Both the position numbers and the translations under genes were made by a program. A stretch of 63,627 nt of DNA, the filler included, from Octopus bimaculoides (Eukaryota): assembly GCF_001194135.2 (NCBI RefSeq). It is 6 parts of 6 records of this genome, joined end to end, with 100 filler letters (N's around TTAATTAATTAA, not from the genome) between each part and the next. Parts side by side here need not be neighbours in the genome. Positions count along the whole stretch, not along the records: positions 28,662 to 34,296 come from NC_068993.1; positions 34,397 to 55,949 come from NC_068981.1; 4 more parts are not named here. One strand, given 5' to 3'. A model generated the notes under the pieces. The model had not been told where the DNA came from and searched no databases. It worked only from the letters and a program-made list of their open reading frames with translations. Shown in pieces: positions 29,224 to 54,809 of this stretch. Positions within the stretch are counted from its first letter, which is position 1, and every line of letters starts with the position of its first letter.

Positions 29224-29460
29224 CTTTATTTAAAAGCAGCAGAAATATCACAAAGACAGTTACTCAGAGTTTTTCATTCCTGTTTGTCAGGCAGTTTTGT
29301 TAGAACTCTAACAAAACTGTCTGACAAACGGGAATGTGAAACTCTGAGTAACAGTTTTTGTGATGTTTCTGCAGCTTTTAAATAAAGCATATTACTCTAC
29401 CTCTAGTATTTGAGTACTCTTTTTTTTTACCTTGTTTCACATTTATATGCATACTCTGGT
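29224..29460 (+). mobile_element. Penelope-like pseudo-LTR fragment with a fold-back palindrome (arms 29224-29304 and 29307-29387)
   Basis: 81-bp arms with 8 mismatches and a 2-nt loop. Contains a hammerhead motif. TA-rich microsatellite on both sides. Confidence 0.7.
29313..29358 (+). ncRNA. Minimal type-I hammerhead ribozyme motif (G8A decay)
   Basis: AAAACTGT-CTGACAA-ACG-GGAA-TGT-GAA-ACTC-T-GAGT-A-ACAGTTTT: 8-bp stem I, GUA site, palindromic stem III. A more decayed mirror copy lies at 29253-29298 (-). Confidence 0.75.
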
Positions 29461-29573
29461 ATATATATATATATATATATATATATATATATATATATAT
29501 ATATACATAACATCCTACGTATGCTAGCATGGTGGGTGGATGTTAAACGATGACGATGATGATGATGATGATG

Positions 29574-29773
29574 ATGAATTTATAATAAAGGAGAACAGAG
29601 ATTTATATCCAGTTTTAGTCAGCGTTTAATTAACTCTTTTCATTTCTGCACCTACATATCTTTCTGCAGCAATTAATGCACAGAAACATGTGTAGGTGCA
29701 GAAATGAAAAGAAGTAATGAACAGTTGAATAAAACTGGATATAAGCCTCTGTTCTCCGTTATTATAAATTCAT
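29574..29773. repeat. Fold-back inverted repeat / MITE-like (93-bp arms 29574-29666 and 29681-29773)
   Basis: About 12 mismatches over 93 bp, 14-nt spacer. Confidence 0.8.
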
Positions 29774-30276
29774 AATTTTCTCTACTGAAAACATGCAATC
29801 TCTACAGAGTGATATGGATTTACCAATGTGTTAGTAAATCAAACTAACTGGAGATTAGCCAGCATTAATTAGCAGTAAAGCAACGATAGTACCCATTTCG
29901 ATTCTATATCTCTACCAAACAAAATTTGGAAATCTATCTATCTACATAATAATATAGATTCTCCGATTTGAAGCGACAATTTTTAAATACAAACAAATGA
30001 CCAAAAAATGATGAGCTAACCCTAGTTAGAATCAAACCCACAAATCAACACTAACATGACTCCTTGTGCATCTGACTGGGCCAAATGCTCACCCATCAAT
30101 TTCAGTCAAATTTAATGAATATATACTTAAACTGTCTAATACGACATGTAATTAGACTGCAGCCATGCTGGAGTACTGCCTCAAGGTTTTAGTCAAATGT
30201 ATCAATCGAATACTTGCTTTTTTAGACATGACTTTTTCCATCCAAAATGCTTTATCAACCCAGCATTATCTACATG

Positions 30277-30499
30277 TGGCGAGCTGGCAGAATCGTTAGC
30301 ATGCTGGGTGAAATGCTTAGCGGTATTTTGTCTGCTGTTACATTCTGGGTTTGAATTCCGCCGAGGTCGACTTTGCCTTTCATCCTTTTGGGGTCAATCA
30401 AAGAAGTACCAGTTATGCACTGGAGTCGATGTAATAGACTTAATCCCTTTGTTTTGTCTCCTCTATGTTTAGCCCCCTGTGGGCAATAAAGAAATAAAT
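30277..30499 (+). mobile_element. SINE family A2 (Tx1-like tail), full length
   Basis: Tail TTTGTCTCCTCTATGTTTAGCCCCCTGTGGGCAATAAAGAAA. 12-bp TSD ATTATCTACATG (30265-30276, 30500-30511). Confidence 0.85.
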
Positions 30500-31139
30500 A
30501 TTATCTACATGCAATTATCTATAGTTTTATGTGTGCTCTGAGAGTCACTGCTCCAAGAAATAACTCACACACACACACACACACACACATGCATGCATGC
30601 ACACATACACATGTACACACACGCATGCACACACACACACTCATGCATGCACATACACACATATAGCTACTATATGCAGAATGTATTTGTAATATTCATT
30701 TAGCCTTCTTGCGTAATAGTTTCACAGCTAACAGCCCATCATAATAAACTGGTTAATCTAAAGCCTATTGCAAAATCTAGAGAGGAATTAATGATATTTT
30801 ATTGTGCTTGAATACTGCCAAATATTCCAGACCAATTTTTTTCTCTTTCACAAAATTCAAATATTAATTTATGGAAAGATTTATTTTCTTCCCGAGTAAT
30901 TTAAATTTAACATTTTGCATTAAATATGCATTGATGTTTATATATAGATATATGTGTGTGTGTGTGAGTGTGTGTGTATATGTATATATATACACATAAA
31001 TACATAGACACATATACTTATATAATTATGTAGTGGAATTATAAAATATATATACATATGTACATATATATACTTATACTTATAAGTATATATATATATA
31101 TATATATATATATATATATATATATATATNNNNNNNNNN

Positions 31140-31402
31140 TTCTCTCTGCAGACTTCAAAATCATTTGGACGTAAAAAATATGAATTCTGAAGACGAGGTC
31201 AGAACAGTACTGGAAGAGTATTTTTCATCACAGACAAGTGAATTTTGGAAGCAGGGCCTTGCAAGTCGATAGATGGAAGAATATTGTAGAAAATGAAGGA
31301 GAGTATATTTTAGATTGAAAAAGAACTTTGTTTATCTTAATTTTGAAAAATAAAAGAAGTATAAAAAAAAAACCCACATTATTTATGGGATGTCCCCAAT
31401 AT
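31140..31402 (+). mobile_element. Mariner 3' end, same family as 11181-12012
   Basis: GACGAGGTCAGAACAGTACTGGA..GTAGAAAATGAAGGAGAGTATATTTTAGATT is shared. Ends CATTATTTATGGGATGTCCCCAATA at (TA)n. Confidence 0.85.
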
Positions 31403-31699
31403 ATATATATACATGTATGCAAGTATATATATATTATATATATATATATATATATATGCCCTATTTAGATGTATATTTACATAGATACATGCATTGATAT
31501 ACTTACATGCATACAGATGGACAGCCAGCCAGATAGATAGAGACTGAGAGAGACATAGATAAATAGATAGATAGATAGATCGATAGATAGATAGATGTGC
31601 ATTCATTAAAAATTCAAGGCAGTGATATGGTAAAACTAAATAACATGCAAATTATGTCAAGCAGAGAAAAATAAGCATAACCACACCAATAACAACAAC

Positions 31700-52917: not shown

Positions 52918-53148
52918 GTTTGTGAGCCATTCAAGAACACACAAAAACCGTTAGTTTCACGTCAACATTTAAATTTCATTTGTGGCAAAATATTTTCGTC
53001 GCTTTCAAACCGCGACAAAACTTCGAGCTGCACGAAGTTTGGTCAGTGAACAGGCCGCGGTTTGAAAGCGACGAAAATATTTTGACACAAAATTTAAATG
53101 TTGAAGTGAAACTAACGGTTTTTGTGTGTTCTTGAATGGCTCACAAAC
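52918..53148. repeat. Long fold-back palindrome (arms 52918-53014 and 53056-53148), PLE pLTR-like
   Basis: About 93 aligned bp with 2 mismatches and one 4-nt indel; central mini-hairpin AAACTTCG..CGAAGTTT. Confidence 0.9.
53042..53086 (+). ncRNA. Hammerhead-like motif with a G3:C8 core swap
   Basis: GTCA-GTGAACA-G-GCCGC-GGTTTGAAA-GCGAC-GAA-AATATT-T-TGAC. The mirror arm keeps a perfect stem II (GTCGC/GCGAC) but has lost the core. Confidence 0.5.
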
Positions 53149-53384
53149 TGGTTATATTTCTACACAAAATATTTAAGCCTTTTTGGATACAGTTCTTAAT
53201 AATATTCAATTATAAAAATAGGCGTTTTTAAATATCGAATGGCTATGGGGGACTCTTCCCCTCATTAAAATAAGAATCAAGGACAAAACTGGAAAGAAAT
53301 AGAAGAGTGAACTTCCTATATATGACCAACACCACCATTACCACTACCACCGCAGCCACTACCACCGTCACCACGACCACCACC

Positions 53385-53525
53385 ATCTACCAAATCCACT
53401 CACATGGCTTTGGTCGGCCCGAGGCTATAGTAAAAGTCACTTGCTCAAGGTACCACGCACTGGGACTGAACCCGGAACCATGTGGTTGGTGAGTAAGTTA
53501 CTTACCACACAGCCAGTCCTGCGCC
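53385..53525 (-). mobile_element. SINE family D, 5' portion
   Basis: CTACCAAATCCACTCAC..GGGACTGAACCCGGAACCATGTGG..CACACAGCCAGTCCTGCGCC. Confidence 0.85.
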
Positions 53526-54549
53526 TATGTATATATATATATATATATATATACATGTAATGCAAATAATAAATGAGTATATGCATATATACGTACATGT
53601 ATGTACATACTTACATCTACCTGTATATAAAGATGCATATCTGGGTGCAGGACATTCTAAACAAACCGTAGACAAAATGATAAACGAGTACAGAAAACAC
53701 ACAGGCCACATAGAGAACATCTCCTTCATCATCTGCCACCATTCTAACACAAGCGTTTCGAAGAGTATGGCAGGACGCATCGTTAAAACGGCTCTTCCCA
53801 CGGACCACAAATTAAATTCAAATTAAATTTAATTCAAACTAAATTTGTAACGTGGAGGAATGTAGTGCCGGATAGACTTGTATATATATGTGTGTGTGTG
53901 TGTGCGCGTGTGTGTGTACAGACAAACAACTGCAAGACTGATATGCATATTACGAACAATGAATCCAGCTGACGAACTTGTATAGGAAATGACGACAACG
54001 TTTCACAGAGCCTTCATGAGACATCATTAAAAACTTGCCAGTGAAAACTATAGCCATAGACCAAAGAATGAACTCATTCCTGTTTATAAGACCAAAGAAG
54101 ACAGTTCTTGCTTGAAGATCACACTGCTGTGAAACTTGAATTTCCAAATTTTACATCATACTCTGATAATATTCTCTGTTTCGTTGACAAACATTTGTAT
54201 ACATGTATGTATGTGTGCATGTTTGTATGTATGCAGGTGTCTGCGCTTGATTGTATGCATATATTATGTGTTTATATGTATGTATGTATGTATGTATGTA
54301 TGTATGTATGTATATGTAAAGAAGAAAGCGATTAGTTTAAAATCTCTGAGCGAGAAGGAAGTAGTAACAGTACTATTGAATGAACTCTATTTTCCGACGT
54401 AAATTAGCAGTCCTGGTTAGGATGATGTTACTACCTATTTTTAGCATAAGGACGCAGTTGTGCGTTGGTAACTAGCTGTTTTCCTGGGGCTAAAAAAAGG
54501 GAGTAACATCGTCCAGGTCAGGACTGCCAATTTACGTCGGCAAATAGGT

Positions 54550-54755
54550 TTCTATCTCTTTCTCTCTCTCTCTCTCTCTCTCTCTCTATCTCTCTCTTTC
54601 TCTCTCTCTCTCTCTCTCTCTATTTCTCTTTCTCTCTCTTTCTCTCTTTCTCTCTCTCTCTCTCTCTCTCTCTCTCTCTCTCTCTCTCTCTCTCTCTCTC
54701 TCTCTCTCTCTCTCTCTCTCTCTCTCTCTCTCTCTCTCTCTCTTTCTCTCTCTCC
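54550..54755. repeat. (CT)n microsatellite, about 200 bp
   Basis: Read directly. Confidence 0.95.
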
Positions 54756-54773
54756 TTGTTTATTTCTGTGTTC

Positions 54774-54809
54774 CTTTCTGTCGAAGAGCGTAGGCTTGAA
54801 ACGTAAAAG
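54774..54809 (+). ncRNA. Minimal type-I hammerhead motif (U at core position 6) in a PLE-like pLTR fragment (about 54755-54885)
   Basis: CTTT-CTGTCGA-A-GAGC-GTAG-GCTT-GAA-ACGT-A-AAAG: palindromic ACGT stem III and a GUA site. Confidence 0.6.

Follow-up and report, generated by a model that had tools for sequence, protein, structure and literature searches.

We analysed a 63,627-nucleotide stretch of Octopus bimaculoides DNA (hereafter the window) for minimal hammerhead ribozyme-like motifs of the kind found in Penelope-like elements (PLEs). The window is eukaryotic DNA of 35% GC, with 4,346 N, and it is rich in microsatellites and short interspersed repeats. A first-pass annotation had reported five such motifs with five different cores; their coordinates, strands and core heptamers were exactly as claimed, and their flanks, described as unrelated, have no mutual similarity. 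A sixth motif (minus strand) had been overlooked, together with long palindromes at 29.3 and 53.0 kb and a swap of the 3-8 pair at 53.0 kb. The motifs are numbered by position (motif 1 at 29.3 kb, 2 at 36.6 kb, 3 at 49.6 kb, 4 at 53.0 kb, 5 at 54.8 kb and 6 at 55.5 kb) and are listed with the descriptor (strict, medium or loose) that matched them.

29313-29358 (+): motif 1, in the right arm of a palindrome; C3/A8 mismatch core, 8-bp stem I, 3-bp stem II; strict descriptor
36582-36627 (+): motif 2, between direct repeats; canonical core, weak 3-bp stem II, bulged stem I; strict descriptor
49620-49685 (-): motif 3; U3/G8 core, long interrupted stem II, imperfect stems III and I, single copy; loose descriptor only
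53042-53086 (+): motif 4, in the right arm of a palindrome, 17 nt from its centre; G3-C8 core; medium descriptor
54774-54809 (+): motif 5; minimal type-I hammerhead-like fold; strict descriptor
55460-55496 (-): motif 6; minimal hammerhead, U3-A8 core, single copy in the window; medium descriptor

Hammerhead-like motifs and chance expectation

The chance control consisted of 60 local dinucleotide shuffles of the window. The strict descriptor gave three matches (29.3, 36.6 and 54.8 kb) against 0.12 per shuffle, and no shuffle out of 60 reached three. The medium descriptor gave six, with 53.0 kb, 55.5 kb on the minus strand and 50.3 kb in addition, against 0.62 per shuffle (none of the 60 equal), and the loose descriptor gave twelve, the 49.6 kb motif among them, against 5.08 per shuffle (equalled by 1 of the 60). 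The enrichment is somewhat flattered, as the descriptors were broadened after the motifs were known (one extra junction base and compensated 3-8 pairs were allowed); an earlier bulge-free descriptor gave three matches, among which two of the five initial motifs were recovered (29.3 and 54.8 kb), against 0.6 in 30 shuffles. Three of the motifs initially reported, those at 29.3, 36.6 and 54.8 kb, are thus well above chance, whereas the one at 53.0 kb needs a looser descriptor and the one at 49.6 kb is doubtful, being at chance level. The medium-descriptor match at 50336 (+) has a G3/G8 mismatch core and a weak stem II, and it is probably due to chance or heavy decay.

GAAA, a palindromic stem III, U16.1, H17 (not G) and a closing stem I are present in motifs 1, 2, 4, 5 and 6 and imperfect in motif 3. 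Stem III is self-complementary at 29.3, 36.6, 53.0 and 54.8 kb and not at 49.6 kb, which agrees with the earlier description of four palindromic motifs and a looser fifth. The loop-less type-I layout attributed to PLEs also held, as the motifs at 29.3, 36.6 and 54.8 kb match the published layout of PLE minimal hammerheads. In the core, motif 2 conforms to CUGANGA and the 3-8 pair is compensated in motifs 4 and 6; motif 5 (U6), motif 1 (C3/A8) and motif 3 (U3/G8) depart from it without compensation. The extra base after A9 and the G10.1-C11.1 pair were seen in motif 5 at the family level and in motif 6, but not in motifs 1 and 2 as single copies. In place of five core states we find one canonical core, one inherited (A6U), two candidates (C3/A8 and G3-C8) and one doubtful (U3/G8, already in print), so the earlier observation is partly confirmed and its interpretation partly supported.

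A short repeat family with U at core position 6

Motif 5 has a 4-bp stem I, a U at core position 6 (54781), one extra A, a 4-bp stem II, GAAA and a palindromic ACGU, with position 17 at 54805. It lies in a repeat that has a further, diverged relative in the window.

54753-54885 (+): short dispersed repeat bearing motif 5, with a pyrimidine-rich leader, the hammerhead-like fold and a ~75-nt tail; contigs or reads in four runs
37151-37217 (-): tail of another, diverged relative of this repeat, 79% alike over 67 nt, ending in (AT)n; sequence likeness

Family-level data were obtained for motif 5 only, with 54753-54885 as the query against DNA runs from three species labels and one RNA run (ordinary RNA-seq, about 6% of the run read), at a threshold of 80% likeness and with variants reported from 8%; the query of the sequencing-run search was 36020-37070, not motif 5, and that search listed no RNA run with a match. 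The repeat was matched by 14,659 of 30.6 million, 15,954 of 40.6 million and 16,527 of 35.8 million contigs in the three DNA runs and by 3,043 of 12.9 million RNA reads. Summed contig depth is not copy number, for which the rough bounds are ~3,000 to 100,000. The loose ends of other copies are TA-rich on both sides, with an agreement of only 0.49-0.59, and in the 37151-37217 copy the hammerhead position falls within the assembly gap 37225-37569. The palindrome at 54387-54547 was ruled out as a part of the motif-5 unit, since the other copies begin immediately 5ʹ of the motif. Scans for the family pattern gave no copies in viral contigs or in a first metagenome scan; the loci from a second metagenome scan (2) and from a prokaryote genome scan (120) were attributed to chance, as none of the 122 matches the window beyond ~25 nt around the pattern, simple repeats aside.

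At position 6 there was no variant row in any of the four runs at the 8% threshold. Since the same runs did reveal variation at positions 4 and 7, a subgroup with A6 would have shown, and U6 is therefore the family state in all three organisms. The A6U core of motif 5 is inherited and is not a product of decay, and for this motif the claim of non-canonical cores stands. We also considered that all non-canonical cores arose by random decay of single dead copies of canonical hammerheads. Decay does occur, as CpG sites of the motif-5 family, G12 and the stem III pair included, are decayed at 4-10% in DNA, and the window copy was changed in this way at 11.1 (G-U at 10.1-11.1 in place of the G-C present in 92-94% of the family). 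Likewise, the C7-A8 of motif 1 is the expected product of CpG decay of C7-G8, and the stems of motifs 2 and 3 are broken. However, decay is rejected for motif 5 by the presence of U6 throughout the family in three species labels, the core of motif 1 is identical in both arms of its palindrome (29284-29290, minus strand, in the left arm) with only one of nine arm differences of CpG type, and the core of motif 6 is compensated and in print. As a general explanation, decay is therefore very improbable.

Of the 133 sites, position 7 showed the greatest variation in three of the four runs and the second greatest in the fourth, with G at 21-29% and U at 20-45% in DNA. CpG decay as the only cause was ruled out, given the C-to-G change at 21-29% and no matching decay row at G8. 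Position 17 was A, U or C (in DNA, U 2.5-20% and C 0.9-5%; in RNA, 37% and 20%), and a G row was absent in all four runs although A-to-G is the transition. Loop II varies as the hammerhead consensus permits, while no variant rows were found at C3, G5, G8, A9, A13-A15.1, U16.1, stem I and the remaining stem II positions. Among constrained non-CpG sites 1 of 24 was variable, compared with 10 of 49 in the tail (Fisher p 0.064) for DNA only, and with 13 of 49 (p 0.019) when the RNA was included. A U4A subgroup (54779) makes up 12% of DNA and 10% of RNA in organism A and 0.3% in organisms B and D, and it is a lineage-specific expansion with two core changes. Since the variation at positions 7 and 17 and in loop II stays within the hammerhead consensus, and since the rest of the core, GAAA and the stems are constant (CpG decay and U4A aside), we infer that the source copies were selected for the hammerhead fold.

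Alternatively, the variation could be due to an overlapping reading frame and not to RNA structure. In one frame, both position 7 and the site of the U4A change are indeed third codon positions. However, position 17 would then be the middle of a TAA stop, at which the synonymous TGA change is unseen and two stop-destroying changes are common, and the 16 variable sites examined are spread 6, 6 and 4 over the three phases, so that a coding origin is scarcely credible.

Insertions around motifs 1, 2 and 4, and motifs 3 and 6

Three of the motifs lie in larger palindromic or partly tandem structures, and one of these has a relative elsewhere in the window.

29219-29460 (+): palindromic insertion with a ~67-nt one-sided tail, between (TA)n runs; arms 29219-29304 and 29307-29392, 90% complementary; contains motif 1
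15370-15520 (+), limits approximate: another palindromic copy from the motif-1 family, further decayed, central motif-bearing part gone; sequence likeness
36265-36801 (+): partial tandem around motif 2; inverted copy 36266-36329, direct repeats 36389-36468 and 36723-36801, 81% alike
52918-53148 (+): palindrome of 231 nt, arms differing by 3 substitutions and 2 indels; contains motif 4

The palindrome at 29.3 kb is 174 nt long, and in the one at 53.0 kb the left arm is ~70 nt longer (to ~52845). The core of motif 4 is a base-pair swap at 3-8 and its stem I extends to 8 bp with one bulge; the left arm of this palindrome is without the 12 core-bearing nucleotides and has a perfect 5-bp stem II and a broken stem I. 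The core starts 15.5 nt from the palindrome centre in motif 1 and 17 nt in motif 4, and both whole palindromes fold back on themselves, masking the motif. The structure around motif 2 contains one hammerhead only. Partial tandems, inverted 5ʹ-truncated copies, one-sided tails of 30-40 bp and microsatellite targets have been described for PLE insertions (Craig et al., PMC8557442). Such traits are present at motif 1 (palindrome, tail and TA flanks), motif 2 (inverted copy and direct repeat) and motif 4 (palindrome with one longer arm); the tails of ~67-70 nt at motifs 1 and 4 exceed the published 30-40 nt, and palindromic DNA-transposon derivatives (miniature inverted-repeat transposable elements, MITEs) can look alike.

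The less convincing motifs (53.0 and 49.6 kb, perhaps 29.3 kb too) may be chance look-alikes in MITEs or other repeats, a possibility that we take seriously and place somewhat below an even chance. The medium and loose descriptors do fire on shuffled sequence at the rates given above, the arm opposite motif 4 has neither the core nor an intact stem I, and similar long palindromes without a called hammerhead, possibly PLE 5ʹ-inversions or MITEs, are found at 29571-29776, 54387-54547 and 9787-9836. On the other hand, G3-C8 is the one double change in its region that retains activity in a deep mutational scan (PMC9901934), and it partly rescued a PLE hammerhead (PMC11167929). The 8-bp stem I of motif 4, and the position and one-sided tail that motifs 1 and 4 share, also speak against look-alikes, and motif 5 would be left unexplained. 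For the motif at 53.0 kb, the odds of a real hammerhead are about even.

The first-pass annotation had proposed non-autonomous families of PLE or retrozyme type. In favour of the first are the PLE-style inverted or partial-tandem insertions at 29.3, 36.6 and 53.0 kb; the second fared worse, as we found no tandem hammerhead units in the window and no go-back joint listed in RNA. Published retrozymes without long terminal repeats (non-LTR retrozymes; Cervera and De la Pena 2020, PMC7229834; Li et al., bioRxiv 10.64898/2026.07.22.740005) resemble our repeats as short non-coding hammerhead repeats related to PLE terminal repeats, but they are defined by hammerhead-bearing tandem units, cut to circularising monomers, and by circular RNAs, and neither was seen here. 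Motif 2 does lie within a 334-nt partial direct repeat, and retrozyme families can be mostly monomers linked to PLE repeats. Nevertheless, no two same-strand hammerheads stand in tandem within the window, the retrozymes in print carry canonical hammerheads, and no joint of 3ʹ end to 5ʹ end is listed for motif 5, only two internal go-backs in DNA with a single contig each. The motif-5 RNA reads come from both strands and 81% of them continue into unrelated sequence. A retrozyme origin is thus improbable.

Inside motif 3 a 24-nt imperfect hairpin at 49646-49669 (-) breaks an otherwise compact G-C stem II, which suggests a branched stem II or an insertion. Motif 6 has an extra U, a G-C-rich stem II, GAAA, a U-A palindrome, U at position 17 and a 3-bp stem I. 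A few bases after it, at 55449-55457 (-), there is a splice-donor-like CAG|GTAAGT; introns are known within PLE repeats. Two repeat copies, 36798-37071 (-) and 47376-47649 (+), are 85% alike, and their likeness stops directly after a perfect CTGATGA, with GAAA ~30 nt upstream; this is possibly a permuted or truncated hammerhead.

Relation to Penelope-like elements and candidate activity

We favour, with some reserve, the reading that four of the motifs (29.3, 36.6, 54.8 and 55.5 kb) have a minimal hammerhead shape and likely derive from the terminal repeats of several unrelated PLE families, with the one at 54.8 kb in an abundant short repeat in which U6 is family-wide. Cervera and De la Pena (2014, PMC4209133) report thousands of minimal PLE hammerheads for an invertebrate genome; these fall into several unrelated families, are mostly solo copies and have a weak activity that is confined to multimers. 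The consensus of that study and our motifs share the short stem I, the extra base after A9, G10.1-C11.1, GAAA with a palindrome that has little or no loop, and a U-rich leader, and in both cases many unrelated families occur per genome, mostly as single dispersed copies. Its alignment contains the U3-A8 core of motif 6 and, in the Saccoglossus row, the U3/G8 core of motif 3; it is without G3-C8 and C3/A8 rows, the cores of motifs 4 and 1. The layout of motif 5 equals the published consensus save for position 6 and is close to the Acropora Neptune row. A6 is present in all 56 rows, as the descriptor of that study demanded, in contrast to U6 in the motif-5 family. Apart from this core, the presence of several unrelated minimal hammerheads in one invertebrate window is what the literature leads one to expect.

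The proposed partner class was represented in the window by one remnant.

42202-42881 (-): remnant of a PLE-type GIY-YIG endonuclease, decayed and spread over two frames, with 5 stops in the upstream frame; HMMER and motif pattern

A 66-residue end of the remnant has HMMER matches to four unnamed proteins (E 1e-6 to 8e-4), for which a cluster look-up yielded no names either, and the upstream frame matches one of the two of those proteins tried (E 0.001; none for the other), whose neighbours in the ESM Atlas are named GIY-YIG. Pfam gave no match for the remnant, and a word-based protein search with the endonuclease piece gave nothing. The remnant fits a GIY-YIG endonuclease with a Cys-rich linker and a C-terminal Cys/His motif, a pattern that we assign to PLE clades, in part after Craig et al. 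(PMC8557442). The remnant claimed at 42.2-42.9 kb is real and the PLE class exists in the window, but the remnant is joined to none of the five motifs and is not evidence that PLEs mobilise them. Just downstream of it, at 42108-42163 (-), where a PLE 3ʹ hammerhead would be, a hairpin-in-hairpin with an 8-bp outer stem has several core changes and is called by no descriptor.

Several results weigh against a derivation from selected PLE hammerheads. No PLE reading frame lies beside any of the six motifs in the window, and the remnant is >5 kb from every motif. In Rfam (hammerhead clan CL00010), no hammerhead was among the best 150 of the 191 rows of the window scan; in five local scans the sole hammerhead row was HH9 at 36582-36628 (motif 2), with 11.3 bits against a cut-off of 52, and motifs 1, 3, 4 and 5 gave no hammerhead row. 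Rfam hammerhead models presuppose a closed stem III. In single-strand folding the hammerhead was not the minimum-energy structure for motifs 1, 4 and 5, and energies from single-strand folding and co-folding did not discriminate. In the motif-5 family the constraint test is borderline on DNA alone, with sites non-independent and runs sharing the family history. The stems and GAAA are kept in the family consensus, CpG decay aside, but there are no covarying pairs: no stem position reaches 8% in DNA except by CpG decay, leaving no pairs in which a compensatory change could be compared. Shared ancestry alone can give invariant stems. The second core change in the U4A subgroup did not stop amplification, and neither a pile-up of read starts or ends nor a go-back joint, which would point to cleavage or circular RNA, is listed in the ~6% of the RNA run read. 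From the literature, single and double mutants of the CUGA turn were low in activity in the deep mutational scan, except for the C3G/G8C swap (Roberts et al., PMC9901934), and hammerhead-dead mutants did not lower PLE insertion in vitro (PMC11167929).

The motif-5 family could therefore be hammerhead-derived and catalytically dead, with the fold carried along passively or retained as a signal through which the PLE protein binds or primes, an explanation that we regard as possible but rather unlikely. It would account for the amplified U4A subgroup, for the lack of cleavage ends in the RNA run and for the dispensability of hammerhead activity in vitro, and A6 substitutions are damaging (PMC7151607, PMC9901934). 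However, the exclusion of G17 and the free position 7 are signatures of catalysis and not of simple hairpin binding. Moreover, a natural A6C hammerhead, that of phage Bcep176, is slow in Mg2+ but cleaves well in Mn2+ (Perreault 2011, PMC3088659; Naghdi 2020, PMC7151607). It is, like motif 5, naturally substituted at core position 6; it differs in having C and in being a single phage sequence, whereas motif 5 has U in a high-copy animal repeat and is without a stem III loop. The PAc Poseidon hammerhead of Anolis is inactive alone, is assisted by the protein of the element and is partly rescued by C3G/G8C, and there were no RNA-seq ends at the cut site of this hammerhead either (Frangieh 2024, PMC11167929). 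It is part of an intact element, with a reading frame that begins in stem II, and G3-C8, the active double mutant of PMC9901934, was engineered there but is natural in motif 4.

Judged by its sequence pattern, the motif-5 family is likely a natural ribozyme variant with candidate activity. The stronger proposal, that the U6 hammerhead is an active, selected ribozyme in thousands to ~100,000 copies in at least three related animal species, with a natural G3-C8 core in the same genomes, is doubtful at present. If U6 is active, PLE hammerheads would explore cores excluded by standard descriptors, with activity from dimerisation, the protein of the element or Mn2+. Under the favoured PLE derivation, selection for the hammerhead fold would have continued in the source copies once A6U had arisen, and the reverse transcriptase/GIY-YIG protein of a PLE would have spread copies as short 5ʹ-truncated, sometimes 5ʹ-inverted insertions at TA microsatellites. 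The inserted copies would then decay, as was seen for CpG sites, and the core of a single copy is thus no proof of the family state. Cleavage after position 17, if any, is predicted to be slow and conditional, requiring a second copy that pairs via the ACGU palindrome or the protein of the element; hammerheads with a short stem III that cleave as dimers (Lunse et al., RNA Biol 14:1499, as cited in the review PMC6765202) have the same architecture and a proposed dimer mechanism. A solo copy included in a host transcript by read-through is expected to be largely inert, and a palindromic copy to hide its motif by folding back on itself.

No natural A6U variant was found in the literature searched; the data set of Lunse et al. 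(which may include these families or U6), Arkhipova et al. 2017 and some supplements lay outside the search. The literature search found no hammerheads in octopus, and in the passages searched of a 2026 octopus repeat paper (PMC13282606) neither hammerhead nor ribozyme occurs (0 mentions). With the core fixed as CUGANGA, as in the published searches for PLE hammerheads, high-copy U6 families go undetected. The motif-5 family, with its thousands of natural copies, fixed U6 and free positions 7 and 17, lends itself to testing what PLE hammerheads are maintained for, be it cleavage or a different function. Cleavage by this family would broaden the natural core consensus; its absence would mean that the fold has been retained without catalysis.

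Fragments of other mobile elements were also noted in the window.

44738-45325 (-): LINE (long interspersed nuclear element) reverse transcriptase fragment; Pfam RVT_1, E 4e-11
12063-12476 (-) and 62790-63361 (+): fragments resembling mariner and Tc1 transposases; by eye

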